The notes under the pieces are model-generated. The model saw only the letters and a list, made by a program, of their open reading frames with translations, did no database searches and was not told the origin of the DNA. The translations under genes were made by a program, and so were the position numbers. From positions 2,834 to 66,833 of IMG/VR virus record IMGVR_UViG_3300044637_000586: a stretch of 64,000 nt of DNA, one strand, 5' to 3'. This document shows, piece by piece, positions 7,339 to 33,682 of the stretch (position 1 is the first letter of the stretch; every line of letters begins with the position of its first letter). Source of the stretch: a virus.

Positions 7339-9387
7339 CTATCGAACCACAAGCACGCTTGCTTCGTTGTTTGAAGGGTTGCTATCAGGCAATCCATTCA
7401 CCTCAGTGATACGAACTCTCCAAGTATTTGGAAGTGTACCTTGAGTTGACGTAGGCCATACGGTTCCCATACCCACAGAACGTCCCGGCATGATGCGCTC
7501 TGGACGACTCCAGTTGCTTTGATACTGACCATCGAAACCGGACACTCCCTTGTAGGAGGTGATGACTGATGTCCCCTTGTTTGTAACGCGGTAAGATACA
7601 CGAACTCGGTTAGCATCAAGCCACTCGTATCCTGTAATCTTAACTTCTATATCCAAGGTTTGATCCGGAGGAGTTGGGGTTGTTACCGTGATTGAAGTAA
7701 GGGCGATGTTATCGTTCTCATTTGACTCATTGATTGCGTTTGCAGGATCAATAGTCAGGATGAACTGAGACAGGCCGCTGAGGTTGTTTGGAACGGTGTA
7801 AGGGATCGTAGCTGTAACCGAAGTCTGACCCTTTGGAACGGTCACGGTTCCGGTGTAGAAGTTAAGGATTGCTCCTGCTGGGTTCTTGAATGAAATTACT
7901 ACAGGGGCAAGCAAGTCTGCCGTAATAGGCTTATCAATCATCACAGAGTAAGACACGTTAGCAATAGATCCGGCCTCCGCAGTAGCAGGAGAACTGATCA
8001 CACCATATACATTGACCAAGGTCGGCGTAGGCGGAGGAGGAGTAACGCCACCCGCAAGAGATACCGCCGTGTTAGCGTCGATAATACCAAAGCCAAGCTC
8101 GGCTGACTTGCCGTTGGCGTCGTAGGTATAACCACCAATCTTCCGACATGAGTTCTTGAGGATGTCACGAACCTGCGCCTCTGTAAGCTCTGGGTTCTTT
8201 ACAAGCACCATACCTGCAACAGCAGCCATAGCAGGGCATGAAGCAGACGTACCGCTAAACCCCTTGTATGCCTCTGGGCCGTATCCAACAGCGCCTGTAC
8301 GGTCTGTCGTGTACAACGAAGTACCCGGAGCGGCAGCAAACAGCTTAGGGCCGTAGTTGCTGAATCCTGCGCGGGTGTTGTTTTGCGTACTAGCGCCTAC
8401 AGCCATTACCGACGGGTAAGACGCAGGGAGCTGAGTGAAGTCAGACTGGTATCCGTTTCCAGAGGAAGCAAAGAGTGGAATACCCTTTCCGTTACGGGCG
8501 GTGGTACGAGCGGCGGTCAAGGCGTTGGCGAACACTGGATACCCAGACCCCGTGCTGCCCCAAGACATTGACATGGCCACGCAGTTGGGGTTCTCGATGG
8601 CCTTGTTGACAGCGCGTGTCAAAATTGTATCTGATGTTCTGAAACCACCACCTGACGTGCTACCGAAACCGATGTGCAGGAATTGAACCTTTACAGCATT
8701 GTTTCCGATAGACTTACAGCCGATGTCGTTACCTGTGTTGGCCGCGATCACACCGGAGCAAGACGTTCCGTGGTTCTCAAAGTCAGACACTGGGTTCACA
8801 TCTGCTGCATCTGTCACGCAGTTCCATGAAGATGGGCTGATAGAACCCTGCAAGTCCTCGTGGGTTGTCTCGCAGGCGATGTCTAGGACCGCTACCTCTT
8901 TAACTACACCGGCAGGGAGTTGCGCCCATGCCTCCTGGCACTTCATGTCGGGCAAATGCCAGTGGCCAGAGTAGGCCATCTCCGCGTGTTCGGCCATGGG
9001 TACGATGTAGTCCGGCTCCACGCTAACGAACAGGGCTGTAGACATGATGCTGCCGTAGAATGAATCGAAGCTAACGAAGTCCGGAACCTCAACAAAGAAT
9101 GTCTTGGTTGACTCAAACGAGTCGTTTACCACAATCATGTTGGCCTCAAGGTACTTCTTACCCTCCGCATAGCTCTTAGCTATCACGATAGCAAGACCAG
9201 ACTCAACATGGTCAAGGGACTCCTCAACGCTGTTGGACTGGGATACCTTGGCAGGATCCGGAGTTACCGGCTGCTCGTCACGGAAGACGATGATGCTGAA
9301 CGGCTCGAACACCTGCACCACGTTGGCCTTGGTTTTGTTTTTCTCAAAGGACGCCTTGTCCTTGAACTTAACTGATTTTAAACTCAT
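7339..9387 (-). CDS. S8 subtilisin-like serine protease with C-terminal CARDB/Ig-like domains
   Basis: Triad motifs VAVLD, HGTSCSG, GTSASCP; ASSGN oxyanion motif; IDPANAINESNENDN CARDB motif; start moved to MSLKSV. Confidence 0.9.
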   Translation of the reverse strand: MSLKSVKFKDKASFEKNKTKANVVQVFEPFSIIVFRDEQPVTPDPAKVSQSNSVEESLDHVESGLAIVIAKSYAEGKKYLEANMIVVNDSFESTKTFFVEVPDFVSFDSFYGSIMSTALFVSVEPDYIVPMAEHAEMAYSGHWHLPDMKCQEAWAQLPAGVVKEVAVLDIACETTHEDLQGSISPSSWNCVTDAADVNPVSDFENHGTSCSGVIAANTGNDIGCKSIGNNAVKVQFLHIGFGSTSGGGFRTSDTILTRAVNKAIENPNCVAMSMSWGSTGSGYPVFANALTAARTTARNGKGIPLFASSGNGYQSDFTQLPASYPSVMAVGASTQNNTRAGFSNYGPKLFAAAPGTSLYTTDRTGAVGYGPEAYKGFSGTSASCPAMAAVAGMVLVKNPELTEAQVRDILKNSCRKIGGYTYDANGKSAELGFGIIDANTAVSLAGGVTPPPPTPTLVNVYGVISSPATAEAGSIANVSYSVMIDKPITADLLAPVVISFKNPAGAILNFYTGTVTVPKGQTSVTATIPYTVPNNLSGLSQFILTIDPANAINESNENDNIALTSITVTTPTPPDQTLDIEVKITGYEWLDANRVRVSYRVTNKGTSVITSYKGVSGFDGQYQSNWSRPERIMPGRSVGMGTVWPTSTQGTLPNTWRVRITEVNGLPDSNPSNNEASVLVVR

Positions 9388-9400
9388 TGGTTTTATTGAT

Positions 9401-9988
9401 TTACGTTCTAAATTTAACTGACCTCTTCCACCTCGTGATGTGGGTGTTCTTGGACAGCGGGCGGATCTTGATGTAGACGCCATCCCGTGACCGTGAGTCA
9501 CGCATCCCCTGTTCGTTGGTGTTGCCCTCTATCACTCGAATAGAATGCTCTCCTACGCGGTCTACGATGCCGGTGTGTCCGATCCCTTTGTATCTTGACT
9601 TCTTGAAGTTTGAGTATGTGTATGTGGCAACAAGGACATCGCCATCACGAAAGCTCTGATAAAACCTGCCGTCAGTGTAGATAACATCTTTTCTATTGTA
9701 TGCGCTAGGACTCCAGCCTGTTACTGTGTTCGCGATCCCGCACTCGTCGAGTATGGCGCGAACGAAGAATGAACACCAAGCATAGCCGGGCTTCCACCCA
9801 ACAGCGGCCATCATCTTCTGGAGTTCTTTGTCCCCGAAGGCTTGGTTGTTACCTCCCTTCTCCCTTACCCCTACAAAGGAAGCGGCAGTGGCGCGGACGC
9901 AGTAGCCGTCATTATCAGCCACAGAATAAACAGGAAGCACAAGAAGAGTCCAAAGTAAACACAGATGTATAAAACGATTCTTTGCCAT
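9401..9988 (-). CDS. endolysin, CHAP-family amidase with N-terminal signal segment
   Basis: AWCSFFV, GHTGIV, IEGNT motifs; hydrophobic N-terminus. Confidence 0.85.
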   Translation of the reverse strand: MAKNRFIHLCLLWTLLVLPVYSVADNDGYCVRATAASFVGVREKGGNNQAFGDKELQKMMAAVGWKPGYAWCSFFVRAILDECGIANTVTGWSPSAYNRKDVIYTDGRFYQSFRDGDVLVATYTYSNFKKSRYKGIGHTGIVDRVGEHSIRVIEGNTNEQGMRDSRSRDGVYIKIRPLSKNTHITRWKRSVKFRT

Positions 9989-21700: not shown

Positions 21701-22961
21701 TACGCTCTCTTGCCGCAATGTAGTCTGGATCATTCTGGAGGATAGTATCGGACAAAATCTTAACCGCTTTTTTAGCAGTACCGGTATCATCGAGCACCCC
21801 TTCAAATGCCTTAGACAGTCTCTTCGTTGCGCTTGCTTCTCGGTTCTTTTTTATCTCTTCGCTGAAATCGCCAATGTTCTCATCGATCACGGCATCAATC
21901 TTAGTTCTCTCGCCTGGGGCCAAGTCTTTGATTTGATTCCATACCCGGTTCTTTATGGCTTTGGCCGAGTATGCTCCTTCTTGTATGTATGACTTTGCAA
22001 GGTTTACAATGTGGGGTGTTATCTCTACTATCAAAGAATCGGAAAGAGACAAAGCCCCTGGAGCACGCTTCTTGGATAATATGTCTCGAATGGCACTTAT
22101 GCTGGCTTCCCTTTGTTTCTTGAACTCAGGCTTAACCGTAACCACCGTAGCTGTCTTCTTGACTTTCGGCATAGCCGAAGTAACAATAGCATCAGCCTCT
22201 TCTTTCGTTATCTTGGCTATTTCACGCAGTTGTGTGATCGCTTCGCCAATGGTCATTTGACCGGACGTAACCTGATTGAGGAATGAGTCTCTTGATTCGT
22301 CTTCCTCAAGTATTCGGTTCATCAATTCTTCAGGCGTAGACATAGCCGACAAAGCCGCGCTTGTCTTACCCGCTTCTGTTGCTGTTTCCGCCTTGGCCTG
22401 GTAGAATTTAGTTGAGTTTTTCTTATCTCCTTTTATGTAGAAATAAGTGGCTATCTTAGTCAGCATCACTTGATACTGATACGATAACCCGGGATTGTCA
22501 ATCTTCTCCTGCTCGGTGGTTTTCAGATAGGCCGTTAAAACATCATTGAATATGTTCTTTTCGTCGGCCTCGTACCTGTCCTTGAGAATATCAAACTTCT
22601 CCGTGGCCAAATTATCCATCGCTCTTTGATCGACAGATATGTACTCATCCACCTTTAAACCCCTTTGCTGGGCAACTCTTCTTCCGTATGCTCTTGTCTT
22701 TACGTCTCCATAAGCCTCACCAAGCCTTGACTTCATGAAGTCAGCCATTTCGCTCTTTGTTTCTTTGGGCTTTTTCTTGGCAGGCGTAGCAGTCTCGGCA
22801 AACGGATTGTCTCCTTTGAGGCTGTCTACATTGATTAATTCATCGGCTATCAATTTCTCCAGACCTCCGTTGTAAAGCATATCCATGTACTGCTCAAAGG
22901 TTTTCTCCTCCGCAGCAGTAGCGCCTGGCATCTTTATAGTTACCTTACAGGGTTTCGCCAT
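18786..22961 (-). CDS. large internal virion (ejection/cargo) protein
   Basis: 1391 aa, alpha-helical, single Cys at residue 5; last gene of the cargo cluster. Confidence 0.65.
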   Translation of the reverse strand: MAKPCKVTIKMPGATAAEEKTFEQYMDMLYNGGLEKLIADELINVDSLKGDNPFAETATPAKKKPKETKSEMADFMKSRLGEAYGDVKTRAYGRRVAQQRGLKVDEYISVDQRAMDNLATEKFDILKDRYEADEKNIFNDVLTAYLKTTEQEKIDNPGLSYQYQVMLTKIATYFYIKGDKKNSTKFYQAKAETATEAGKTSAALSAMSTPEELMNRILEEDESRDSFLNQVTSGQMTIGEAITQLREIAKITKEEADAIVTSAMPKVKKTATVVTVKPEFKKQREASISAIRDILSKKRAPGALSLSDSLIVEITPHIVNLAKSYIQEGAYSAKAIKNRVWNQIKDLAPGERTKIDAVIDENIGDFSEEIKKNREASATKRLSKAFEGVLDDTGTAKKAVKILSDTILQNDPDYIAARERKQKIKAKDRLKAVLSNKDQVEAIVLKAKNIAMANVDANENADAATKMDIKNEIESLVSDLLQIPIGNVEKRAVAKSLSKEEMDAEIARIASEYYTDPSGEVQSLAERLVENLGVDPAYASALQAEVQPLIESKVQEKIELNQAKIDNIMQGIKDSDNVKKSIIKAIGKGEISDTQFEDALLEALEYKGVSARDIVALQGYFYRLQQLQPGEELYQQINRYINDILNEYDESTSALVARWFNEQFYINALSDLFKTAIIASGLGAIVSTIQHGAFTFAMNPARMKRAIQFANKMKKQGATMGWETVLAKWQRPESRFGETTLLERPEEKASGAVVRVTKKEYDKILSDIISAKGGRKSYFIAQAVLKSFSHAMGSGYRKRKFMPAISEVSMVMMSAQDIIMGGMLQDIYTYIEAERYLDVINKESGVKMKKGTAVWNQQLNELLQTGPERIADLKQEVAQEATERLNMGEALPKGWAKRRLREKIHAAMPSEVVNEMASQAKKSLALQKPESRLGALVYNGLTQKLAIKDKDNVVTASTRTVFNAVFGFARLSVIMAEYSYKALPVLPAVTKLAYGKNIRYVGAKNIEVPMTREDKVRRLIQNAIVTAAWAGVISSMFDWEDDEEGDTVMTLDPNSQIKFYGSADDGNQKAEMEAEGAEPNSVTVFGKNISLSLLGFGAGAVGKILGEVSNDIRFGKDDKKNITFNRVVGLVGSQISGSDYSSIKRATKKLFTFGEAKYLEAGEILLLDGVETSLSPALMENLKKDYEAWKGIQQEKRVGVVDNIVSDIFFTDIFMDTNGGLVYDHFGQPVYVKPSNPILKALVPESVWKDGTSHVEKSPYYSLTEKKWFPKAYTRFDAEEWEGLPGKRRVEMSEDFKPSLKIIIDAETADIIDKRKGQLERLSDDKKVEKMEEFRQDAIKAVKDKFSRQMLKAFPDVKLGELNDDDRARLVYQRREEVVKKMREEYGIETK

Positions 22962-23452
22962 TAGAACAGTTTTTCTTCGAGAAGCAATAACTTGAACTTA
23001 TCCTTTCCGTCTACATCCTCAAGCAGGTTGAGCTTGTCGCTGTATTCCGCAACAGACTTGGTCTGTATCAATCGGAATTGCTGTAAGAAGTCAAACGTGC
23101 AAAGATCCATGTTGAAGAGTTTCTTAGACGTCTCTTCATACGCCTCGTACAAATCGTATTCGATCTTGTATGCCTCTTCCAATACCTCGAGAAGTCCGGA
23201 GAAGTCTACCTGCGGCTTGGGTACGGTAGGAAGCGGAACAGTGATGTTCCAGTCTACCAAATACTTTTCAATCTTAGCTGCGTGTTCGAGTTCGTCTTGA
23301 GACTCTGCTGCGAAGAACTCGGCAGCTTTGAAATACCCAACACCCTGGCACCAGTTGCTGGCGGCACGATAGAAGTAAAATGCATCCATCTCGTCCAAAT
23401 GACGTGGGGCTAATAGGTCTACTACACCTTTATCTAAACTATGAGGTTTCAT
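22961..23452 (-). CDS. ferritin (non-heme, FtnA-like)
   Basis: LDEMDAFYFY, ESQDELEH, KIEYD, IQTKS match four-helix ferroxidase ligands. Confidence 0.85.
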   Translation of the reverse strand: MKPHSLDKGVVDLLAPRHLDEMDAFYFYRAASNWCQGVGYFKAAEFFAAESQDELEHAAKIEKYLVDWNITVPLPTVPKPQVDFSGLLEVLEEAYKIEYDLYEAYEETSKKLFNMDLCTFDFLQQFRLIQTKSVAEYSDKLNLLEDVDGKDKFKLLLLEEKLF

Positions 23453-23458
23453 GTTTTA

Positions 23459-26400
23459 TTACGGGCAACCGTCAGTTTTGTTTGTTATCACACCCGCTTC
23501 TTGCAGGCGCTTATTAATCTTTGGAATATTGTCGTAAATATACTTCAGTTTTGGGTCACGCCCCAAAATTTCATCAATAGCATCCCTTGCTCCAGGTGTT
23601 TTATCCTTGAGTTTATAGTAGTTGTCAACCAACTCGCTTATGCTTGATTTGACCCCGGATGGTTTCTCTGCCTTAGGAGTTTTAGCTTTTGGCTGAGCCT
23701 TGGGCTGAACTTTGGGAGTTGCCCCAAATTCATCTTGCAGGATCTCGTCGAATTGCTCTTTAAGCTTAGATGTTAGTCCATTGTACCAATCTTGACCTCC
23801 AACTATGTTGTTTACAGCAACCTGTGGGCTTGTGCCGGACTGAATAGCTTGCTCGACAGCATCCGCTGCATTCTCCATCAAAGACTGAATCTCAGCATTT
23901 GTTCTTGGTGTAGGTTCACGCAGCTCGTTGGGGATCGAGTTAGTTCCGTATTCGGCCTGGGTTTCGTTTAGCTTGTTTTGATCAGCATACGACTCATAAT
24001 AACCTTTGACACCTTCGCTATCGCTATTTACAACTACATAGTCAAGAACTCTTATGCTAGCACTTTGCAACGATCTAGTCATCGGCTTTACGCCAGACTT
24101 GTATTGGTCTTGGTTAGAGTAAAATATAACTCCTGCCGCAGTTGCGGATTCACCAATGAAAGAAACGACTTCCTTATAGTCGAATCCTTTTTTGAAGATA
24201 TAATTACCTATTATCTGCCCGCTGTTGTTCAATAGCAACATACCATGTTTAGGTAGCGCGGTAAAACGAGTCTGCATCAAAAATGTGGATACATCCTGTG
24301 ATCCAGATATAGCCACAACCGGTTCGGACAAGATTTGTTGCTCGTCCATCACCTCGACTTTCAGATTCTTGTTGTATTCTTCTTGATACTCCTTATCTAT
24401 ATTGCGTTTTTTAACGATCGATAAGTCGTATGGCCATGTAAGATGAACATACTCTTTTTTGTATGTATCCATGATGACGTGTTCAACCTCGATGTCAAGA
24501 GGCTGAAGCATTTGTACTACGTCTTCAGTAAGTTTAATATCCGCGTTACTTGCCACCAAGGCTCCCGAAGGATGGTTGTGAACTAAATATACTTTTTTAG
24601 ATTTAAACTTTTTCACACCAGACAAAACAAGTCTTGGATCCACTACAGTGGCAGTCGGACCACCCATGCCCAGGAACTGAATGTGGGCCTTTCCGCTCTT
24701 ATCAACGTGTACAGCGAAGGCGTGCTCAACAGACTTGTCTTCAAGTTTACGCATGATGTGTGCTACATCTTCCGCATCCTTGACCTTGACACTTCCGTTA
24801 AACTTGATTTGCTTGTATTTGTTCCATACAGCCTTTACTGTATTACCGACTCCTCCATCTCGTACACTTTGCCCCCGTACTCCATCTGGCTCACTATACG
24901 GTATATTTCCGCTTTCGGATACAATCGGGCCGGCGGCTGTGTCTGTTCTTGTAAGTCCTTCGTTTGGTCCATCGGTTGTTTTGCTTTTTGTGGTTGTTAC
25001 AAATTTTTCAAAAGCCTCTAAATCTTGCTTAGTTCCAAGCTCAAATGTTTCATTCTTGATATAATAGGCTACCTCATCCATTCCGGAGTCTATGCCGACA
25101 ATAGCATCGGCCTTTTCTATTAAATCAACAATGTCTACGTCTTTTTCTACCCATAAATTTTCTATCTCAACATCTCTTCCAGTATTTTTTATGAGACCTT
25201 CATCCATCTCAATATCATAATCTCTTAGGTCGAGCAAATTCTCCGCGTTTACAACAACGGCTTTTCTTAGTGAGCCAAATGTTCTTGTATAATCTTTGTT
25301 GGGAGTGAAATACTTTCCTTTATCCCCCTGCGAACGATACCCCCTGTAAAGTATTTCTTTTACCTTGCTGTTGGGGAAAATGGTGTTTAGATAACTGGCG
25401 TATTGTTGTAGCGTGCCAATCTTTGATAATCCGGGAACAGAATAATAAAAGTCCTTTACATTTTGCCCCTCGTAACCTGCTTGGGGTTCTTGAGCTTCTT
25501 GCGTAGCTCCTTCAGATGGACTAATGCCATAACCGCCTTGTCTTCCTTGCTCAGGTTGTTCACGTTCAATTTCTTTGTAGAATTTTTCATAATCTTCTAT
25601 TGTTTTTACTTTTTCGTCTTCACTTAATGATTCATAGTATTCAATGAGTTCGTCTTCACTCAAGTTGCCCAAATCATTGTTTCTGATGGCATCTCTCATC
25701 TGTGACTCATACTCGTACTTAGCCGCCTCGTCCATGTCGTTAACCAGCTTGTTACGCATCTCGATGAGCTCGTCCTCCATTTGAGACTTGTTCTCAAAAG
25801 AAGCAAGCACGTCAAGAACCTCGTTGACAGCATCCTGTTCGTCAAGCACGATTCCGCCGAGCTCTGGTAAATCTTCAAGGGCGATCAGATCCACGCTTCG
25901 GCCATTGTCGGAAATAAAACCGACTTTCTTTGCAGCGGCTATTTCAGCTTTGCCGGCAAGTTCGGACTGGCTTGTCATTACCTTTCCGCCCCTCAAGAAA
26001 TAAAGAAGAATACTTGCCCTTAGACCAAGTAATGAGTCCTGGGCCATTGACTTCGCTTCCTTCAGATTGTCGTTACGCTCCTTGTTAAATTTGCGGTCAA
26101 CATCTCTTCTGGCTACGACTTTACCGCTTTCCTTGCTTGTCAGACTGATGTTTCCACCTTTTACATTGACAACTGTGAAGCCAAGCCTTTCCGCCTCGTC
26201 CTTAATTTGACTTAACAGATTAGCACCCATTGGCTTTCTGCTTTTGGGTATCTTGTTGTAACGATTCTTTTTGGTGATGAGCTCGTTTACGGCATCATTT
26301 GTAGTCTTTTTTAAATCAGAAGGAGGGTTCTCTAGGGTTTCCTGTATAAGTTTATCGGCATCATCTACAAGTTTCAATGATCCCGCCTCGTACTCCTCCA

Positions 26401-29400
26401 TGCCTTTCTTGACGAGATACGCCTGTATAGCCAAATCCTCCTCAGACATCTCCATGGGGCTTTCGTACCCCATTCTTTTTAAAACCTCGTCATTGATATG
26501 ATCCCATACCTGCTGTTTATCCGCAAGTATTTTCGATCCCTCTTCTATTTCCCTCTGTTCCACAGAAGATGGCTCTTCTTCGGCTTCTTCAATATCTGTT
26601 TCGGGAGCGAAATCCTTTATTAAAAATCCCCCGTTGTTTTCCGCGTTCCAATCACTCGTTGTGCCATCAGGCGATACTAACTTCCAAATAGATTTACTGG
26701 TATCTTCAATGGTGTATTCTTCGTATCTACCATTGTAGTTTCGATACACTATGTCGCCTTTTCCAAAATTACTTAAACGCTTTCCGTCCTTCTCGCTTGT
26801 CCGGTTAAGCATACTGTCAATTCTAAGGGCAAAGCTCGATGAGGCTCTATACGATTTGAATTTTTCAATTGAGTCAACAAATCCCTCTCCCATGTATTGA
26901 ATCTGGTTCTCAAGAAAATCAGCGACTTCCCTGGTGATTCCCTGCTCCTCAACCATCTTGTTAGCTGCGTACTCATACCCATCCCCGACTAGTGCATCAG
27001 GATTGTTCTTCCTAAACGTGTTGTAGTAATCAAACATTTGTTTGAACAGCCCGTAACTCTTTTCGTAATTCAAAGGTGGTACAGCCTCGAATCCCTCGTA
27101 TACATTTGCGAACTCTTCTATCCTGCCTTGCATGGCATTTTCAGTCAAGTTCTTTACTCTTGTGAAACCTTTTTTGCCAGGGCCTAAAACTTCATAATGA
27201 GGAGCCCAATCGTTTTCCCCTTTAATTATTTCACCTACCTTGAATTGATTGGCGCTTTTAAGTTTTTTCTCCTTGACCGGAGCGGGTGCTGATGGCGCTG
27301 TTTCTTCTTCCGTAGCAACTTTTCCCGCCTCTGGAAAGTATGATATTTCTTTGCCGGTTTCGTTCTTGTACTTATTATCAAAAAAGTTTATCTCCTCGCC
27401 TTCTGGAGTGACGACCCTTGTTCCTCCTCTCTTGTTTTCAAAAAACTCGGTTATTGTGTAGCCGTCATTTGTTTTCCAAGTGGCGAGTTTAAGATCATCA
27501 CGTTGAACACCGTTCTCTTTTTCAGCCCTGTCTATAAGAGCGTTTAGCTCTTTGTTCAAAGAAAAAGCCTCTCTTTCTGAAACCCTCTTACCGCCAAATC
27601 CTTTCTTGAACAGATTCTTGATGTTGGCAAATGGCTTTGCTTTTTGGGCCTGTGCGGGTTTTGTTTCCGTAGGTTCCGCCTCCGTTTCAAACAACGAAGC
27701 TATCTTGCCCTTTCGAGTTGGCTTTTCTTCAACGGGTTTTTCAGCTGGCTTTTCCTCGCCTTTAAACAAACCTGCAAGACGTTCCTTACGGCTTGGCTTG
27801 GCTGGCTCGGTCTTTTCAGGCAGGGCTGCCGGCTTGACTTCTTCAAACTCAGTCTCTATTCCCCCAACATCTTTTCTTGATTGATCAAGAGACTTTCGGT
27901 ATGATTCAAAGTCATATCCCGCAAGGCCGGCCGTGGCCTTTTCGTATTGGGCGGCAAGAGGTAATAACTTTTCAGGCAGCTCTTCTGCGTCAACGATCTC
28001 CCCGGTCTTGTTGTCCGTGATGATTATCTCGTTGTCGTAGTCCCAGTCAATGCTAAATCCATTGTTGCCAAACTCCATTTCAACATTAGCCATCTCATCT
28101 GTTATGGGCTTCATGTTGGCCTCGACTTCTTCCGGGGCGATTTCGGGAACTACTTCCTCTTGTGCTTGAAGAACTCCACTTGCTGGAGCCTCTTCTTTGC
28201 TTGGAGCTTCGACAGGTTTGGCTTCGACAGGTTCTTGCCCGACTCCGACTTCACCTGATACCCGGATTTGGTTTTCTTTATCATATTTTAATGAGTTTAG
28301 GTTTTCAAGCAGTTGTTTTGAATTGCCCTGCTGCCCCTCGCGTATCTGCAACGTCCTTCCGTCTTCCGTAGTGATGTTTACCGATACTATCTTGCCGTTC
28401 TTCTCTGCGTAATTATTAAGCGTAGCGTTCTTCCCGGCGTAGTTAATCGTTGCGCCCTTTTCAAGAGTAGGGGTAATAAGCGTGTTCTGATTCTCGATAT
28501 TCATCTCCCCGACGATTCCTTCGTCAGTCTCGATGCCCATCTCACGGATCTTTTCAGCAACTCCCTCTCCCTTTTCAATGATAACGCTTCTTCCGTTGTT
28601 GTATTCTATCTCGTAATCACCGTCCTCGTTGATAAAGAAACTAGCATACTCGTCACCCACCTTTACTCGCTGAGGTGTGGTAGATGTGCCTACCGACTTA
28701 GCATCAATACCATTTTCACCAAGCATCAGGATCTCTTCGCGCTCGTTCTTCAATCTTTCGATTTGAGCGTTAGTGATAGGGTCTTTAAGACCGCCTTCCT
28801 CCAGGGTTCTTATCTGTTGGGTTATACCGAATGCCCGAGCTTGCTTGGGGCGTGGGAGGTTTTTCCAGTTGGGATGAGCTGATAAAGCTTGGAAGTCTTC
28901 GCGAGGACCTTTCAAGTCCTGTTTCACCTTAGCCACGTCTGCGCTATTGGTTGATGCCGCGATTATGCCATCCGCATTTTCAGCGGCCTCAAGCATAACG
29001 TCTTCCGCAAAGTTGGAGGCTCCTACCGGTCTTCTAAAGAAATTACCCGCCTTACCGCCTATCAAACCACTCAGTGCGGCATCCTTATACCCACGGCCAG
29101 AATTTAAGTCCTTAAAGTATTCGGTTTCACCCAGGTAGTTGATAATCTCTTTGGTGGCATTATCAACCTTTTGCTGAGTAACTTCTTCGCCCGCTTCTTT
29201 CAATCCGGACTTGAGATATGATGCAGAAGATTCCGCAAAAGAATCCCTGAATGCTTGCGATAAACTTTTACCGTTTGCCAAATCATTCAGTACAGACTTT
29301 CTGAAAACGCTAGGCTCAAAGTATTTAACGTCAGGTATCAATCCTTCAGCCAATGACACGGCGATAGCGGTTGCTGTAGAAGCTGCCGCAGCTTGCCTTG

Positions 29401-31309
29401 GAGACATCTTGTGGGTATTGATGGCTTCCTCGTATGCGTCAGCTTCTGTTACAAGCCATGACGTTGCGAACGTAGCCCCATACTGAGCCATCTTAGATGC
29501 CCCTGCAAACGTGCCGCCTAAGGCGAATGTGGCAAGTGAAGCCAGCGCGTTACCTCCTAGCGAGGTCAAGTATTGGATGTTTGATTCTGATTCAATCGTC
29601 GGGAAGTCTACCCTCTTTTCCATGCGGTAGTTTTCCAGTCCGTCATAAATCTCGTCAAGGAAGTTGTATTCAGTATTCCCGGTCACAAGATCTTCAACTA
29701 TCTTGGGTATTTCCAAGACGTTGATGGCCATGTTTCCGATCCCGGCGGCAAACGTATTTGCAAGTTCGCCCGGGGCGTATATCATCTTCATCATCGGAGA
29801 AGCGTTGTCCCACCTCTGCTTTCCAGCCTCCTGCTCCTTCTCGATTCGATCCTTTAATGTCTTGTATTCGGAATAGTAATTTATGTTATCCTGGTTTAAA
29901 GCACCAAGTACCTTGAGTGATAAAGCGGACTGACCAAGAGAGTTATACGCAGTCTTAGCCTGATCAAGCTTAGCTACGTTCTCGTCGGTCATCCTTGAAC
30001 GAACCTTGAGGTCTTCGTAGTCAGATTGTAACTTGTTGCTACGCTCTTGTAGCTTGCTGAAATCTGGGTAGTTCGCCCTGTATGCGTTGTATTCGTCCTT
30101 ATACTCTTGGCTGATTCTATTGAACTCAGCCTCGTAGTCCTCACGCTTCATGGTGGAGGACTTCGCATTCAGATCCTGGATGGCCTTATTAAATTCAGCA
30201 TCTCTTTGATTCCATGAAGCGAACGACTCCTTTGCCTTTTGCTCGAGTCTCTTGTATTCGGCATCTATCGCTGAACGCTCTTGATTCAACGCGATAACCC
30301 CGGCGTCAAACAGGCGGGAGTCAATTGAAGCCTCTATCTTAGAATATTCGTTGATTCCTGACTTTTGCTTGTCGTAGTTCCTCTTGATTGCGGCCATCTT
30401 CAACTGAATAGCCCTGGTCTCCATAGAGTTTAACCACTCTTCGTTCTTGGCGCTTCTGTCTGTGCTTGACTTTAGTTGAGAGTATTTATTAAACTCAGCC
30501 TCACCTATTTCGGGTCTCGTCTTCTTCATGTAGTCGAAATAGTCGTCCATCAAAGCGGAAACCATCTCGCCTCTCTTGCCTTCTTTCTCAATAGTGGTTC
30601 CGTTGGGAACCTCTCTTTCACCAAGAGCAATTTGAAGATCCGTTAAATCAGTCGGGGCAACAGTAAAGTATGGGAAAAACTTATCCGACTTGTTGCCGGC
30701 ATTGTTCATGTAGCTGTCTATCTCCTCGCCAAACTGAGCTTCGTATTCATTGGCTATCCTCTTATCTATATCCTCTTTTGTCAGAATGTTTACACCCTGA
30801 TCCTCAAGAGCCTTTTGACTTTTCTCAAACGCGGCCTGGTTGACCTTTTTAATAGCTTCCTCTGATGCGAAATCAGTTCCCTTTTCTTTGGATACAGAAG
30901 CCAACGGGGATTGAACGAATTTACCCTGCTCTATTTTCTTCTCGACTTCTTTTATAGCCTTAATAGGCTGAGGAATCTGCGCCTGTGTTGTCTCAGACGG
31001 CATCTCCTCTCTACGAAACGTAATGTCCTGCTGCTTCTTTTGGGGCTCTTTCTTCACCCCTTTCATTACCGGCTCCCCGCTAACGAGGGTTTCGGTCATT
31101 ACTTTCTGGCCAAAACTCGGCGCAGAAGGCTTTGTAGGCTGCCCTTGAGGCGAACCAGAAACGGGTTGCCCACCCCCTTTTTTTTTTAACCCAGAGATAA
31201 ACGCGTCGCGAAACTTGCGAAGATCATCTTTGCTTGCGCCAGTGCCTGCGTATTTAACAAGCCCTTGTTTTAGCTTTTCTTTTTCGTCCGGAGTTAATCC
31301 TACTGGCAT
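23459..31309 (-). CDS. giant polyvalent ejection/cargo protein with ART-like and RadC/JAB domains
   Basis: 2616 aa; LYRG..YFT..E ART-like segment; VHNHPSG...SNAD JAB motif; Gly/Ala hydrophobic segments near aa 580-660. Confidence 0.75.
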   Translation of the reverse strand: MPVGLTPDEKEKLKQGLVKYAGTGASKDDLRKFRDAFISGLKKKGGGQPVSGSPQGQPTKPSAPSFGQKVMTETLVSGEPVMKGVKKEPQKKQQDITFRREEMPSETTQAQIPQPIKAIKEVEKKIEQGKFVQSPLASVSKEKGTDFASEEAIKKVNQAAFEKSQKALEDQGVNILTKEDIDKRIANEYEAQFGEEIDSYMNNAGNKSDKFFPYFTVAPTDLTDLQIALGEREVPNGTTIEKEGKRGEMVSALMDDYFDYMKKTRPEIGEAEFNKYSQLKSSTDRSAKNEEWLNSMETRAIQLKMAAIKRNYDKQKSGINEYSKIEASIDSRLFDAGVIALNQERSAIDAEYKRLEQKAKESFASWNQRDAEFNKAIQDLNAKSSTMKREDYEAEFNRISQEYKDEYNAYRANYPDFSKLQERSNKLQSDYEDLKVRSRMTDENVAKLDQAKTAYNSLGQSALSLKVLGALNQDNINYYSEYKTLKDRIEKEQEAGKQRWDNASPMMKMIYAPGELANTFAAGIGNMAINVLEIPKIVEDLVTGNTEYNFLDEIYDGLENYRMEKRVDFPTIESESNIQYLTSLGGNALASLATFALGGTFAGASKMAQYGATFATSWLVTEADAYEEAINTHKMSPRQAAAASTATAIAVSLAEGLIPDVKYFEPSVFRKSVLNDLANGKSLSQAFRDSFAESSASYLKSGLKEAGEEVTQQKVDNATKEIINYLGETEYFKDLNSGRGYKDAALSGLIGGKAGNFFRRPVGASNFAEDVMLEAAENADGIIAASTNSADVAKVKQDLKGPREDFQALSAHPNWKNLPRPKQARAFGITQQIRTLEEGGLKDPITNAQIERLKNEREEILMLGENGIDAKSVGTSTTPQRVKVGDEYASFFINEDGDYEIEYNNGRSVIIEKGEGVAEKIREMGIETDEGIVGEMNIENQNTLITPTLEKGATINYAGKNATLNNYAEKNGKIVSVNITTEDGRTLQIREGQQGNSKQLLENLNSLKYDKENQIRVSGEVGVGQEPVEAKPVEAPSKEEAPASGVLQAQEEVVPEIAPEEVEANMKPITDEMANVEMEFGNNGFSIDWDYDNEIIITDNKTGEIVDAEELPEKLLPLAAQYEKATAGLAGYDFESYRKSLDQSRKDVGGIETEFEEVKPAALPEKTEPAKPSRKERLAGLFKGEEKPAEKPVEEKPTRKGKIASLFETEAEPTETKPAQAQKAKPFANIKNLFKKGFGGKRVSEREAFSLNKELNALIDRAEKENGVQRDDLKLATWKTNDGYTITEFFENKRGGTRVVTPEGEEINFFDNKYKNETGKEISYFPEAGKVATEEETAPSAPAPVKEKKLKSANQFKVGEIIKGENDWAPHYEVLGPGKKGFTRVKNLTENAMQGRIEEFANVYEGFEAVPPLNYEKSYGLFKQMFDYYNTFRKNNPDALVGDGYEYAANKMVEEQGITREVADFLENQIQYMGEGFVDSIEKFKSYRASSSFALRIDSMLNRTSEKDGKRLSNFGKGDIVYRNYNGRYEEYTIEDTSKSIWKLVSPDGTTSDWNAENNGGFLIKDFAPETDIEEAEEEPSSVEQREIEEGSKILADKQQVWDHINDEVLKRMGYESPMEMSEEDLAIQAYLVKKGMEEYEAGSLKLVDDADKLIQETLENPPSDLKKTTNDAVNELITKKNRYNKIPKSRKPMGANLLSQIKDEAERLGFTVVNVKGGNISLTSKESGKVVARRDVDRKFNKERNDNLKEAKSMAQDSLLGLRASILLYFLRGGKVMTSQSELAGKAEIAAAKKVGFISDNGRSVDLIALEDLPELGGIVLDEQDAVNEVLDVLASFENKSQMEDELIEMRNKLVNDMDEAAKYEYESQMRDAIRNNDLGNLSEDELIEYYESLSEDEKVKTIEDYEKFYKEIEREQPEQGRQGGYGISPSEGATQEAQEPQAGYEGQNVKDFYYSVPGLSKIGTLQQYASYLNTIFPNSKVKEILYRGYRSQGDKGKYFTPNKDYTRTFGSLRKAVVVNAENLLDLRDYDIEMDEGLIKNTGRDVEIENLWVEKDVDIVDLIEKADAIVGIDSGMDEVAYYIKNETFELGTKQDLEAFEKFVTTTKSKTTDGPNEGLTRTDTAAGPIVSESGNIPYSEPDGVRGQSVRDGGVGNTVKAVWNKYKQIKFNGSVKVKDAEDVAHIMRKLEDKSVEHAFAVHVDKSGKAHIQFLGMGGPTATVVDPRLVLSGVKKFKSKKVYLVHNHPSGALVASNADIKLTEDVVQMLQPLDIEVEHVIMDTYKKEYVHLTWPYDLSIVKKRNIDKEYQEEYNKNLKVEVMDEQQILSEPVVAISGSQDVSTFLMQTRFTALPKHGMLLLNNSGQIIGNYIFKKGFDYKEVVSFIGESATAAGVIFYSNQDQYKSGVKPMTRSLQSASIRVLDYVVVNSDSEGVKGYYESYADQNKLNETQAEYGTNSIPNELREPTPRTNAEIQSLMENAADAVEQAIQSGTSPQVAVNNIVGGQDWYNGLTSKLKEQFDEILQDEFGATPKVQPKAQPKAKTPKAEKPSGVKSSISELVDNYYKLKDKTPGARDAIDEILGRDPKLKYIYDNIPKINKRLQEAGVITNKTDGCP
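24835..24972 (-). CDS. nested +1-frame ORF, 45 aa
   Basis: MDQTKDLQEQTQPPARLYPKAEIYRIVSQMEYGGKVYEMEESVIQ; A-rich leader ACAAAAAGCAAAACAACCG-ATG. Confidence 0.45.
   Translation of the reverse strand: MDQTKDLQEQTQPPARLYPKAEIYRIVSQMEYGGKVYEMEESVIQ
25456..25590 (-). CDS. nested +1-frame ORF, 44 aa, basic helical
   Basis: MKNSTKKLNVNNLSKEDKAVMALVHLKELRKKLKNPKQVTRGKM; leader AAAAACAATAGAAGATT-ATG. Confidence 0.5.
   Translation of the reverse strand: MKNSTKKLNVNNLSKEDKAVMALVHLKELRKKLKNPKQVTRGKM
28150..28284 (-). CDS. nested +1-frame ORF, 44 aa, small basic phage protein
   Basis: MIKKTKSGYQVKSESGKNLSKPNLSKLQAKKRLQQVEFFKHKRK; leader AAACCTAAACTCATTAAAAT-ATG; resembles a stand-alone small phage protein family as I recall it. 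Confidence 0.7.
   Translation of the reverse strand: MIKKTKSGYQVKSESGKNLSKPNLSKLQAKKRLQQVEFFKHKRK
31173..31187 (-). other. A10G5 slippery run (candidate frameshift or transcriptional slippage site)
   Basis: TTA AAA AAA AAA GGG GG at codons 41-46 of the giant gene. Confidence 0.5.
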
Positions 31310-31312
31310 ATC

Positions 31313-32617
31313 TTACTGTTTATAAAGTTCTTTGAGCATTTCATTAGCCGCATCTTCGGGCGTTTGGCCGCCGCTTGAAGTGCCGGTAGACACCGATCCG
31401 TTTCTAGTTTCAAACTCTACCCTTGGATCGAATCCGTCCAAATATGATTTAAACTTTGGCTTGTTGTCTTCATAGCTAACCCATATTTCTTTTGGCTCGC
31501 CTGTTGCCTCGTCCAAAACAGGATCTCCCACACTGTCGAGCTCGTACCCTATTACGCTTACGTCGCCATTTTGAGCGTAAAAAAATCCGGTAGGTTTAAA
31601 TACAGGTATTGATCTATAGCCGTTTGTTTGCCCTCCCGCGATTCCGCTTAGTGGCGCCAACTCCTGATTATTTTTCGTAATTGCCATTCGGTTAAACCCA
31701 GGAGCAAAATATTCAATCGGCGCTCCTTCTTCAACTTCTATTGACAAGTCTCCCCATTTACCGCTTCCGTATTTAGGAGTGTCGTCTTTCTTTTTGGTTG
31801 TTGTACCGCTTTTTGTAACCGGCTTAGGCTTGCCTGGATTCATGTCGGTAAACATTGACGTAGCTTCTTCGTACAACTTAACATCGTCGTTTCCGTATCT
31901 TGGTAACAAGGCTTCATGGTCACCCATGCCCACCTGGTCTTTGAAGTATATACCCAAAAGGTTCTTGAACTTTTCGGGATCCTTCTTGATCATGGTTCTG
32001 CCATTAACTTTGATTTCCTCCTCCTCCATCAAGTCATCTATCTTCTCAACTACATCAACTAGATTCACGTTGTTTTTAAAGATGCTGTTTGATTGAGCGT
32101 ATCGAAGTCTTTCCTCCGGGGTAATGTCGTCGCGCATAAACTCCTGAGCCCATGTAGCTGCGTGGCCTTGGTCGTATTTAGTTGGGTTCTTGTCTACCTC
32201 AGGCTTGTCTTTCTCCCAAATCTTCGCGTTTACTTTGGCTGCGTTTGTCTGTCTTTTGATTTCGCGAACCATTTCATCAACTTTCTTTTGCTCATCCAGC
32301 GGTAAATTTCGAGGATCTATTTTGGGATTGAGCTTCAACTTCTTCATGTACTCTTTGTACTCAGTTACTTTTTCTTGAATCTTGGGCAAGTCAACATTCC
32401 ATACGTCTGGATCCTCCATATTGAAGTCTTGCCATGCCTGCATCTTGGCTTGCTGGTCCTTCTTCCTTTCAGCCTCGTATGAACGGATGTCCTGTAAACC
32501 CTGGTTTACTATGTTCAAGGTTTCTCCTAACCCCTCTGAATACGCCGCGCCACGGTTAGACCCTGGCATATCTCCGGCGGCCCCTGTATAGACTATTGCT
32601 GCGCTTGGTACTCCCAT
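31313..32617 (-). CDS. internal virion/ejection protein
   Basis: 434 aa, Cys-free, between the pilot-like and giant cargo genes. Confidence 0.6.
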   Translation of the reverse strand: MGVPSAAIVYTGAAGDMPGSNRGAAYSEGLGETLNIVNQGLQDIRSYEAERKKDQQAKMQAWQDFNMEDPDVWNVDLPKIQEKVTEYKEYMKKLKLNPKIDPRNLPLDEQKKVDEMVREIKRQTNAAKVNAKIWEKDKPEVDKNPTKYDQGHAATWAQEFMRDDITPEERLRYAQSNSIFKNNVNLVDVVEKIDDLMEEEEIKVNGRTMIKKDPEKFKNLLGIYFKDQVGMGDHEALLPRYGNDDVKLYEEATSMFTDMNPGKPKPVTKSGTTTKKKDDTPKYGSGKWGDLSIEVEEGAPIEYFAPGFNRMAITKNNQELAPLSGIAGGQTNGYRSIPVFKPTGFFYAQNGDVSVIGYELDSVGDPVLDEATGEPKEIWVSYEDNKPKFKSYLDGFDPRVEFETRNGSVSTGTSSGGQTPEDAANEMLKELYKQ

Positions 32618-32628
32618 CTCGATTGTTT

Positions 32629-33246
32629 TTATGCGGGGGTTGAATAATCCCCAATATTGCTATATCCTCCTGCTGCCGATCCAAACTGCCCGGCGACCTG
32701 GCCTGCTTTTGCAAAAGCGTCAAACGTGTTGTTTGATTCTTGGTATCTCTTTTCGCGCAATGCGGAAATGGCGGCAGACGTTCTCAAGAATGGGTTGAGT
32801 TGATTCTCTCTGTACATCTCATCTCTGTACCCACCAATTTGCGCTGACAAGTTAGAAAGACCCTGCATCTTCTGTCTTTCGGCGTCCGCTTTATAATTAG
32901 CGGCATTGAAAGCTAATTCTAATCCACCCTGCATTCTTTGTTGGCCGAGCGTGGTTGCGGCAGCCATCACGTCGGTTGAGTTTTGGGCCGCGCCACTAGC
33001 AAAGCCCAGGGACTGCCCCATAGCTGTGTCCATGCCGTATTCGGCCGCCTTTTGGCCTGGCATATCCGTTCTTTGCCCCAGCTGTCTGCCGTATGTAGCC
33101 ATAAGCTCTTGTGGAAGCTCGTACTTTGGCTCCTTGAGTCCTGCTTGAAGCTTTTTAATCTCCTTTTTTGCACGATTGGCACGGACGGCGCTTTGGATAC
33201 CTTTTCCAACCGCTACTCCACCTGCTACTGCTAATATTACCGGCAT
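32629..33246 (-). CDS. small ejection/pilot-like protein (T7 gp14-like position)
   Basis: Gly/Ala hydrophobic N-terminus followed by Gln/Ala-rich helices. Confidence 0.6.
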   Translation of the reverse strand: MPVILAVAGGVAVGKGIQSAVRANRAKKEIKKLQAGLKEPKYELPQELMATYGRQLGQRTDMPGQKAAEYGMDTAMGQSLGFASGAAQNSTDVMAAATTLGQQRMQGGLELAFNAANYKADAERQKMQGLSNLSAQIGGYRDEMYRENQLNPFLRTSAAISALREKRYQESNNTFDAFAKAGQVAGQFGSAAGGYSNIGDYSTPA

Positions 33247-33671
33247 GACTTATATCTTAGTTTAACAACATTGTCTATATTGCAATCTTCCCTTTCCATC
33301 CCACACTTCTCAAACCACTTTATCGCTCTCTGGTTTCTTTCCCACATATAGGTCACGAATCCGTTACCCATCCATTTTTTCATGTCACCAAATAAAGACA
33401 TCAAAAAATCTTTGTTCCTGTACTCTTTGTTGACGCCAAAACTAACAAGCACTTCCCCAAAATAGTAAACAAAACCAATTTCCTTCTCCCCGTCTTTTAA
33501 AACCTCAAACGTGCCGTCTACCACATCTTCATACACCAGCAGCTTCCCGTATGCGTCAGAGCTTACTCCTTCCGGCGTAGGTGTCTCGTTGCTGGGATCA
33601 CAATAATTTTTTATATCGTCATCCCCATCAAAAGCCGCATAAATAGCACTGTAGGATATTTTAGTATCCAT
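33237..33671 (-). CDS. GNAT-fold acetyltransferase-like protein
   Basis: SFGVNKEYR and NQRAIKWFEKCGM motifs; start moved to ATG 33671 behind a TAAATTTG box (33678-33685). Confidence 0.65.
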   Translation of the reverse strand: MDTKISYSAIYAAFDGDDDIKNYCDPSNETPTPEGVSSDAYGKLLVYEDVVDGTFEVLKDGEKEIGFVYYFGEVLVSFGVNKEYRNKDFLMSLFGDMKKWMGNGFVTYMWERNQRAIKWFEKCGMEREDCNIDNVVKLRYKSCR

Positions 33672-33682
33672 TAGTGGCAAAT

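Follow-up and report, generated by a model that had tools for sequence, protein, structure and literature searches.

A conserved A10 run early in a giant phage gene as a probable slippage site for truncated N-terminal isoforms

Introduction

Can a giant phage gene yield, from one start codon, both its full-length protein and a short N-terminal isoform? The question is raised by a run of ten adenines in codons 41-46 (TTA AAA AAA AAA GGG GGT, minus strand) of a gene in the virion module of a tailed phage of ~67 kb, whose virus record comprises 66,833 bases and of which a window of 64,000 nucleotides was analysed (Table 1). Genes for the terminase, the portal and a virion structural protein lie near the giant gene, the 434-aa gene upstream of it is syntenic in two relatives (L001 and L009), and the 64-kb window contains 0 tRNA genes. 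The original prediction, drawn from the letters of the DNA, held that skipping one A of the run gives a 69-aa product with an amphipathic tail, the stop codon of which overlaps an internal start codon. The codons, the 69-aa product of the +1 frame, its quoted tail and the overlap of the TAA with the ATG of Met71 were all confirmed in the sequence. From the strict conservation of the run, the suppression of synonymous change beyond it and the retained position of the +1 stop, it is argued here that the A10 run has probably been selected as a site of transcriptional and/or ribosomal slippage, with truncated N-terminal isoforms as the result.

Table 1. Features of the giant gene and its surroundings, in positions of the window
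Feature	Position	Strand	Description
Upstream gene	31313..32617	minus	434 aa; TAA 3 nt ahead of the ATG of the giant gene
Giant gene	23459..31309	minus	2616 aa; single ORF running through the A-run; ATG at 31309
N-terminal module, codons 1-41	31187..31309	minus	two-helix hairpin; one of five exchangeable module types of the family
A10 run	31178-31187	minus (T10 on the plus strand)	last base of codon 41 (TTA) and AAA AAA AAA, then G
+1-frame tail ORF	31099..31185	minus	28 codons and TAA; gives a 69-aa product
-1-frame tail	31080..31187	minus	35 codons including KKK, then TAG; 76-aa product
Nucleotide-invariant linker core	31110..31141	minus	CAG CCT nnn AAG and the 20-mer CCTTCTGCGCCGAGTTTTGG; zero frame QP..PSAPSFG
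TAATG	31097..31101	minus	+1 TAA (31101-31099) overlaps the zero-frame ATG of Met71 (31099-31097)
RadC-like JAB domain	24467..24781	minus	residues 2177-2281 of the giant protein; PF04002, E 2.7e-17; phrog_10276

Architecture of the run and its reading frames

The A10 run is the longest homopolymer of the window and the sole run of at least 9 among its 22 runs of at least 7. With 0.33 A10 or T10 runs expected per 64 kb, one copy is not rare per se, and the significance of the run lies in its conservation and not in its mere occurrence. An assembly error in its length is unlikely because contigs from three independent lake-water sequencing runs (X7, X8 and X10) span it without any indel. The 24 sequencing runs listed for the locus include no RNA run. 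In the zero frame, AlphaFold2 places helices at residues 7-22 and 27-44 (pLDDT ~86-88), followed by low-confidence coil, in agreement with the earlier reading of this part as a linker. The N-terminal module has a pN/pS of 0.26 in homologous pairs, and searches of Pfam with the five N-terminal module types and the shifted product returned sub-threshold noise only. The invariant linker core is confined to clade 1, and the invariance of its 20-mer is partly a product of how relatives were searched for.

Both alternative frames are open after the run. The +1 tail, which lacks an independent start codon, as its frame is closed by a TAA where the run begins, can be reached through A9 or A12 transcripts or through a +1 ribosomal shift, and the -1 tail through A11 transcripts or a -1 shift. 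The +1 tail was predicted to form a clean basic amphipathic helix; it is indeed basic (+9) and amphipathic, with an 18-residue hydrophobic moment of 0.51, but "clean" says too much, as 12.9% of the stop-free off-frame 28-mers in the giant gene reach this moment. Across 25 of 25 sequences the +1 frame stays open for 24-43 codons and the -1 frame for 22-35 codons before a stop, against background median open lengths of 10 and 6 codons. The Pro/Ser/Gly/Gln-rich composition of the linker may be partly behind these long open frames. Of the 20 island-bearing relatives compared, 17 have the +1 stop at one and the same position. The zero-frame residue at this stop varies among V, L and I, and the codon that carries it is always NTA (GTA, ATA, CTA or TTA) followed by A or G.

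Conservation of the run among relatives

An exact A10 followed by G occurs in 26 of 26 distinct sequences (the 25 above and L046), and in none has the run been broken by AAG. Fifteen of these loci were retrieved solely through N-terminal domain type D and so were not picked for any feature downstream; all 15 carry A10 and G. Among them is a clade of 33% GC (L059-L062) that is without the downstream island and core, yet has kept the run. The strictness of this conservation is not a general property of lysine codons, 46% of which are AAA in these genes. In 13 type-D domains, the three codons of the run are AAA throughout (13/13), whereas outside the run all 22 columns of invariant residue use more than one codon, and each of the three invariant Lys columns among them mixes AAA with AAG. 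The codon ahead of the run in these domains is TTA, TCA, GTA or ATA, encoding four residues and always ending in A, and the codon that follows it is GGG, GAC, GTA or GAA, always beginning with G. Elsewhere in these genes KKK occurs five times without ever being encoded by AAA throughout, and there is no second run of at least 9. At the protein level, exactly KKK stands at the joint in 21 of 21 homologues (1721-3152 aa). The run begins after 41-95 codons across the family, giving a short product of 66-120 aa. The original prediction of a slippery element is accordingly strengthened by the contrast between an exact A10G in all 26 sequences and free synonymous change elsewhere.

Public phage genomes gave no match to the sequence, as DNA or as protein. 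None of 596 pattern matches from a metagenome scan with a protein alignment (A1) and none of 600 matches to type-D domain patterns in bacterial and archaeal genomes was a relative, and the latter identified no host. Sampling through the upstream neighbour or the type-A domain returned only contigs that were already known. Several candidates were set aside: two matches to the 20-mer in bacterial or archaeal genomes (L069, L070) are due to chance, being GC-rich MAGs without the A-run, as are two from metagenomes (L026, L027). A distant RadC-bearing giant gene of 3167 aa (L004/L005) does not share the N-terminus, and its run is only A7.

Sequence change downstream of the run

The interval separating the run from the +1 stop shows suppressed synonymous change. 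Once the searched motif is masked, 11 disjoint pairs differ here in 20 of 115 same-residue codons, against 116 of 257 upstream (Fisher p = 2e-7) and 204 of 601 downstream (p = 4e-4). Five pairs with homologous N-terminal domains give 11/66 versus 79/194 (p = 3e-4), and the island-less pair L059/L060 of the second clade gives 2/27 versus 39/97 (p = 0.001). Nei-Gojobori pN/pS in the variable linker, from small samples, is 0.86-1.01 in the zero frame, 0.99-1.03 in +1 and 0.84-0.93 in -1. With ratios close to 1 in all three frames, purifying selection as a protein is not attributable to either alternative frame. A blind profile of the clade-1 +1 tails, searched against 602 six-frame pieces, placed the tails of L059-L062 at noise (E 19-600). 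Pairwise similarity of the +1 tails to that of L062 (p = 0.0005-0.05, uncorrected) is therefore not robust.

Neither a structure nor a Shine-Dalgarno (SD)-like element is held in common 3' of the run. The fold of the RNA after it has a z of -0.16, and of the 16 predicted pairs 0 show compensatory change; the sequence immediately 3' of the run differs among linker types, and a G-rich, SD-like stretch is found in only 12 of 25. The zero frame itself holds the heptamer A_AAA_AAA, of the form X_XXY_YYZ, twice. Conservation at the site goes beyond what this heptamer would need, taking in the NNA codon ahead and the whole A10.

Alternative explanations

That the run is a neutral Lys-Lys-Lys that happens to use AAA is almost certainly wrong. 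One A10 or T10 per 64 kb would indeed be unremarkable, but three AAA codons have a probability of ~0.10 per lineage even before the preceding NNA codon is required (0.24-0.36), and retention in all 26 sequences beside 0 of 22 codon-invariant control columns is at odds with chance. Phase variation at the DNA level, with replication slippage at a contingency tract turning the giant gene on and off, is scarcely credible either: poly-A/T tracts are also described as slippery for DNA polymerase (PMC3711429), but the in-frame length is the only one in the 26 distinct sequences, the 21 protein homologues and the contigs of the three lake-water runs, where contigs hide rare variants, and called proteins of 37-121 aa matching the 69-aa shifted product number none among 5.8 billion clusters. 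The built-in restart fares poorly as well. In the original prediction the locus may have three products: the full-length protein, a 69-aa peptide with putative membrane binding, and a giant lacking its N-terminus whose translation restarts at Met71 within TAATG; together these might set cargo stoichiometry. A zero-frame start codon overlapping the +1 stop is present in just 7 of 25 sequences (ATG in the window, L002, L003 and L059-L061, the last three as TTAATG; GTG in L024), and the other 18 have ATT, GTC, GTA or ACT there. TAATG does serve as a coupling motif at six true gene junctions of the window, but it occurs 56 times per strand, which is about the chance level, and the +1 stop would be reached only by ribosomes on slipped messages. 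Such a three-product locus is accordingly highly improbable.

Two further explanations take the conservation itself as their starting point. The run could act as an expression damper only, in which stalling, sliding or slipped transcripts at the AAA codons or the A-run reduce the yield of giant protein, and the short products are waste. Iterated AAA codons are reported to reduce protein output more than AAG and to cause ribosome sliding (PMC4363877), no alternative frame has a pN/pS clearly below 1, and the blind profile failed across clades. Damping alone is nevertheless unlikely, for it leaves unexplained both the suppressed synonymous change 3' of the run and a +1 stop that is fixed through four different NTA codons; moreover, waste predicts quick "ambush" stops, whereas both alternative frames are open far beyond background in 25 of 25. 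Alternatively, the run and core could be conserved by repeated gene conversion at a site of module exchange, and not by recoding. The five N-terminal module types, at least five types of body and several of linker are variously combined, and the switches between them lie at the run and the core. Recombination has broken the core in L051 and likewise in P0016, and two strain alleles that co-occur in the lake-water runs differ upstream and merge at the run. The joint is thus a recombination seam too, which could alone homogenise sequence. As the whole explanation this is very unlikely: ten bases are very short for homologous exchange, and exchange leaves AAA-to-AAG drift within lineages unhindered, yet 0 of 26 sequences show it while every control column drifts. 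The run also persists in L059-L062 despite the absence of the core, and the linker combines high amino-acid change with low synonymous change, the reverse of what recent transfer leaves.

Proposed mechanism

Selected slippage, the preferred reading, would operate as follows. Without slippage, the full 2616-aa protein would be made. Realignment of RNA polymerase on the run may produce transcripts with A11, A12 or A9, or ribosomes may slide on AAA AAA AAA; by either route a share of reading would enter the +1 or the -1 frame. The truncated products would consist of the N-terminal hairpin and a short basic tail, at 69 aa (+1) or 76 aa (-1), and a short N-terminal isoform is the expected outcome of slippage. 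Slipped transcripts are reported to arise in bacteria from runs of 9 A or T, on which bacterial RNA polymerase chiefly adds bases (PMC5009743). The original prediction considered only the loss of one A; with base addition, the -1 frame would therefore be filled too, and the +1 frame would be reached through A12. That slippage occurs, how often, and by which machine are here inferred from sequence. On a speculative note, the short protein may compete with or aid the docking of the giant through their common N-terminal module, and so set its copy number.

A broader interpretation is put forward only tentatively. This freshwater phage family may carry a portable recoding cassette, composed of A10G and a short dual-read linker, at the seam between interchangeable N-terminal docking modules and giant injected proteins; slippage would free a docking module with a basic amphipathic tail that regulates the copy number of the giant in the capsid or chaperones its loading. 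If true, this would extend a tau/gamma-like principle to virion cargo, with a recoding signal doubling as a recombination joint. If slippage at the site is confirmed, one start codon would give rise, at a fixed ratio, to a giant protein, structural or injected, and to a small one acting as regulator or adaptor, and annotation would need a warning, since gene callers are blind to the short product. The coincidence of a slippery run with a module-exchange seam is also relevant to the construction of mosaic phage genes.

Comparison with known systems

The giant protein resembles the polyvalent proteins that phages and conjugative elements encode and for which packaging and injection are predicted (Iyer et al. 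2017, PMC5512222). Like them it is giant, is encoded among virion genes and bears a RadC-type JAB domain. As this domain is the sole family recognised across its 2616 aa, the giant protein looks polyvalent by resemblance only. The words "frameshift" and "slippage" have 0 occurrences in the main text of that paper, and a literature search found no report of conserved transcriptional slippage in a phage virion protein. Conserved recoding within phage structural modules is familiar from the tail assembly chaperones G and GT, where two proteins with a common N-terminus are likewise made at a set ratio. There, a -1 ribosomal shift upstream of the tape-measure gene lengthens the product, whereas here the shift would shorten the product and lies within the giant gene itself. 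The tssM gene of Citrobacter rodentium, a large structural gene belonging to a phage-tail-like machine, also contains a poly-A tract, and two length variants are described for it (PMC4256274). In that report slippage repairs an interrupted DNA frame; in the giant gene the frame is intact and slippage would truncate.

With the -1 ribosomal frameshifting of Escherichia coli dnaX and the IS elements (A_AAA_AAG / A_AAA_AAA), the site shares a heptamer, present twice in the zero frame, and a shift that leads to early termination. Unlike these systems, it has no conserved stimulatory structure after the run (z = -0.16; 0 covarying pairs), and an SD-like G-rich stretch in only 12 of 25. The sliding of ribosomes on poly(A) is similar in that iterated AAA Lys codons cut output and can change frame, but as described by Koutmou et al. 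(2015; PMC4363877) it is a general effect on inserted sequences, whereas the site in the giant gene is natural and conserved, and its alternative frames end at defined points. The dnaX genes of Thermus thermophilus and Chlorobi are similar in layout: a long ORF contains an internal conserved run of 9-10 A's with stops nearby in both other frames, and the result is a truncated protein with a common N-terminus (PMC5009743, PMC3711429). In T. thermophilus tau and gamma come from one such ORF (PMC5009743), and the A10 sites of Chlorobi dnaX have been ascribed to transcriptional realignment (PMC3711429). The differences are that dnaX encodes a clamp-loader subunit and the present gene a giant phage virion protein, that the short product here is a small module of 66-120 aa and not a large domain, and that slippage is here predicted. 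PMC5009743 names few conserved natural uses of transcriptional slippage among bacteria and their viruses: type III secretion genes, some IS elements and, in some phyla, dnaX; if confirmed, the giant gene would add to these a cleanly conserved phage example of transcriptional slippage.

Conservation of the run

A reread of the minus strand bore out the sequence facts of the original prediction, namely the codons around the A10 run early in the giant virion gene, the 69-aa product of the +1 frame and the overlap of its stop with an ATG. No other homopolymer in the window is as long, and among 22 runs of at least 7 bases the A10 alone reaches 9; with 0.33 A10/T10 runs expected by chance in 64 kb, a single occurrence is on its own unsurprising. 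IMG/VR and the JGI metagenomes, searched at the protein and DNA levels, provided 25 distinct sequences, the window included, along with locus L046, truncated at the N-terminus by the end of the locus. For a 20-mer in the downstream linker, chance matches without any run made up two of the 17 hits in metagenomes and both of those in genomes.

In every true relative the run is precisely A10 with G next, uninterrupted by AAG and in frame, and the ORFs that are complete measure 1745–2826 aa; a long protein encoded out of frame, for which the original prediction proposed a check, was found in none. Because many relatives had been found through the downstream 20-mer, additional loci were sampled by N-terminal domain type D alone (alignment A3). 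A10 and G were present in 15/15 of these loci, four of which (L059–L062) belong to a 33%-GC clade without any downstream 20-mer island. Similarly, KKK lies exactly at the run position in all 21 protein homologues from a collection of 5.8 billion clusters, never as KK or KKKK, and contigs of three independent lake-water sequencing runs span the run without an indel.

Judged from codon choice, the run is more than a conserved KKK and is evidently selected as nucleotides, because AAA constitutes only 46% of Lys codons in these genes, control columns vary, the flanking bases are fixed and none of the five other KKK triplets there is written entirely with AAA. Type-D domains use AAA for all three codons of the run in 13/13 cases. 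Outside the run, each of their 22 columns with an invariant residue varies synonymously, among them three Lys columns with both AAA and AAG. The preceding codon may specify Leu, Ser, Val or Ile and always ends in A, and the following codon may specify Gly, Asp, Val or Glu and always begins with G. The genes contain no further run of at least 9 bases.

Alternative reading frames

In the +1 frame a TAA stands directly at the start of the run, and the 28-codon tail that follows, which has no start of its own, can therefore be reached from the zero frame only. After the run, the +1 frame stays open for 24–43 codons and the −1 frame for 22–35 in 25/25 sequences, against background medians of 10 and 6 in the same genes. 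Of the 20 island-bearing relatives compared, 17 share one position for the +1 stop, which is formed by GTA, ATA, CTA or TTA with A or G next; it lies one codon later in two and four codons later in one.

In all 25 sequences the +1 tail is basic, with a charge of +6 to +11, and amphipathic, with a moment of 0.46–0.69, as was proposed for the window, although the window's moment is matched by 12.9% of off-frame segments. Pairwise local alignments of the +1 tails of the island-bearing relatives (clade 1) with that of L062 scored better than shuffles (p = 0.0005–0.05, uncorrected) and share the motif LLQ.....L.SLL[KR][KR][VA]L. Some −1 comparisons did so too (p = 0.003–0.04), and the zero-frame comparisons of clade 1 with L062 were no better than shuffles. 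A profile of the clade-1 +1 tails did not single out those of L059–L062 among 602 six-frame pieces, and Nei–Gojobori pN/pS in the variable linker set no frame apart (zero, 0.86–1.01; +1, 0.99–1.03; −1, 0.84–0.93). RNA structure at the site found no support, and a shifted product, sought as a called protein, is not on record. No RNA run is among the 24 sequencing runs listed with the locus.

The built-in restart is not supported by comparison, as a start codon overlaps the +1 stop in just 7 of 25 relatives: ATG in the window, L002, L003 and L059–L061, and GTG in L024. The others have ATT, GTC, GTA or ACT at this position. TAATG is a true junction motif at six gene junctions of the window but is present 56 times per strand, and the restart is not regarded here as part of the feature.

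Module exchange and the conserved core

In an AlphaFold2 model of the first 120 residues, built on a six-sequence alignment, confident helices span residues 7–22 and 27–44. The second helix terminates in KKK and low-confidence coil follows, which places the run in this model at the predicted border of the small helical module with a disordered linker. Five unrelated types of N-terminal module, of 41–95 aa and with no Pfam family, were seen in the window (31187–31309), loci L001, L010, L024 and L059, and proteins P0022 and P0023. By opening residues these are MPVGLTPDEK/MADTLTPEEK, MNENQLKF, MKKRYRTS, NPIYKFMK and MAEQEPPYSQKIYGIMK, and in most of them a short helical motif is internally duplicated in tandem. 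The modules are swapped before giant virion proteins, always joined at KKK/A10, and are found with several types of linker and five or more types of body. Lake-water runs X8 and X10 contain a pair of co-occurring strain alleles that have 9 differences in the N-terminal module (window 31190–31280) and become a single path precisely where the A10 lies (unitigs 31160–31310 and 30993–31189).

In clade 1 the variable linker after the run is 36, 42 or 48 nt long and leads to a near-invariant core, CAG CCT nnn AAG CCT TCT GCG CCG AGT TTT GG. A degenerate, protein-level pattern scan of IMG/VR returned 17 relatives, 14 with the exact 20-mer and three with a single synonymous change, and same-residue codons beyond the searched motif are likewise fixed (e.g., CAG 17/17, CCT 18/18, AAG 13/13). 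Synonymous differences were counted among same-residue codons of three segments in 11 disjoint pairs. With the searched motif masked, 20/115 codons differ between the run and the +1 stop, against 116/257 in the N-terminal domain (p = 2e-7), which is non-homologous in six of the pairs, and 204/601 in the next 80 codons (p = 4e-4). The contrast is kept in the five pairs with homologous N-terminal domains (11/66 vs 79/194, p = 3e-4) and in the island-less pair L059/L060 (2/27 vs 39/97, p = 0.001). The linker changes much at the amino-acid level (zero-frame pN/pS 0.86 against 0.26–0.31 in the flanks), so that recent transfer is not a sufficient account of its low synonymous rate.

Module exchange is the main rival explanation for the conservation of the core. 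Module, linker and body types switch at two places, the run and the core, and the breakpoint lies inside the core in L051 (1683–1830) and P0016, where the first 15 bases of the 20-mer are kept before a different gene body (…PSAPSTGQ…); thus, the cassette is also a recombination seam. In these recombinants the usual +1 stop is lost and the +1 tail is extended to 43 codons. Such a seam could explain the core but not the run, for which programmed slippage is the favored reading.

Phage context of the giant protein

The window is nearly the whole of a 66.8-kb virus record and encodes a terminase, portal, large virion structural protein and primase/helicase. With its RadC-like JAB domain and virion-gene neighborhood, the giant protein recalls the "polyvalent proteins" (Iyer et al. 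2017, PMC5512222), the main text of which does not mention frameshifting. A distant provirus-classed record (L005:7336–16839, G001) has a RadC-bearing giant gene of 3167 aa with 46% identity to that of the window in the RadC region only, an unrelated N-terminus and only A7 at its Lys pair; thus, the cassette is not universal among RadC giant genes. The giant-gene start in the window lies 3 nt past an upstream TAA and is without a Shine-Dalgarno motif; a clear GGAGG precedes the corresponding ATG in L009 (1990–2003), L048 and L051. The ferritin-like gene and the next one share a TAATG junction, and synteny of the former is kept in L001.

Features of the window associated with the giant virion gene
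Feature	Position	Strand	Details
Giant ORF	31309 to 23459	minus	2616 aa
A10 run	31178-31187	minus	within codons 41-46, TTA AAA AAA AAA GGG GGT
+1 tail	TAA 31101-31099, overlapping ATG 31099-31097	minus	28 codons; product 69 aa
−1 tail	run to TAG at 31080-31082	minus	35 codons; product 76 aa
RadC-like JAB domain	residues 2177-2281 of giant protein		sole recognizable domain
Ferritin-like/rubrerythrin-like gene	22961-23452	minus	163 aa; between giant virion genes (2616 aa, 1391 aa)
Acetyltransferase-like gene	33237-33680	minus	147 aa; phrog_1249, within virion module
Protease-like gene	7339-9501	minus	720 aa; phrog_3677, within virion module
One-base stop/start overlaps (TAATG)	22961, 10904, 38095, 40195, 17746, 63034	minus	six gene junctions

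Comparison with known slippage systems

At runs of 9 A or T, bacterial RNA polymerase is described as producing transcripts with up to six extra bases (PMC5009743), and iterated AAA makes ribosomes slide as well (PMC4363877). The dnaX gene of Thermus thermophilus is reported to yield gamma from the single tau ORF by transcriptional slippage, since each of the other two frames soon meets a stop (PMC5009743), and A10 sites in the dnaX of Chlorobi are attributed to the same mechanism (PMC3711429). No phage virion case was found in the literature searched. The A10 locus is probably a site of programmed slippage, a class suggested because its layout is the same as that described for tau/gamma of T. 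thermophilus. Unlike in dnaX, the shared part at the phage locus is a small module at the N-terminus of a giant protein.
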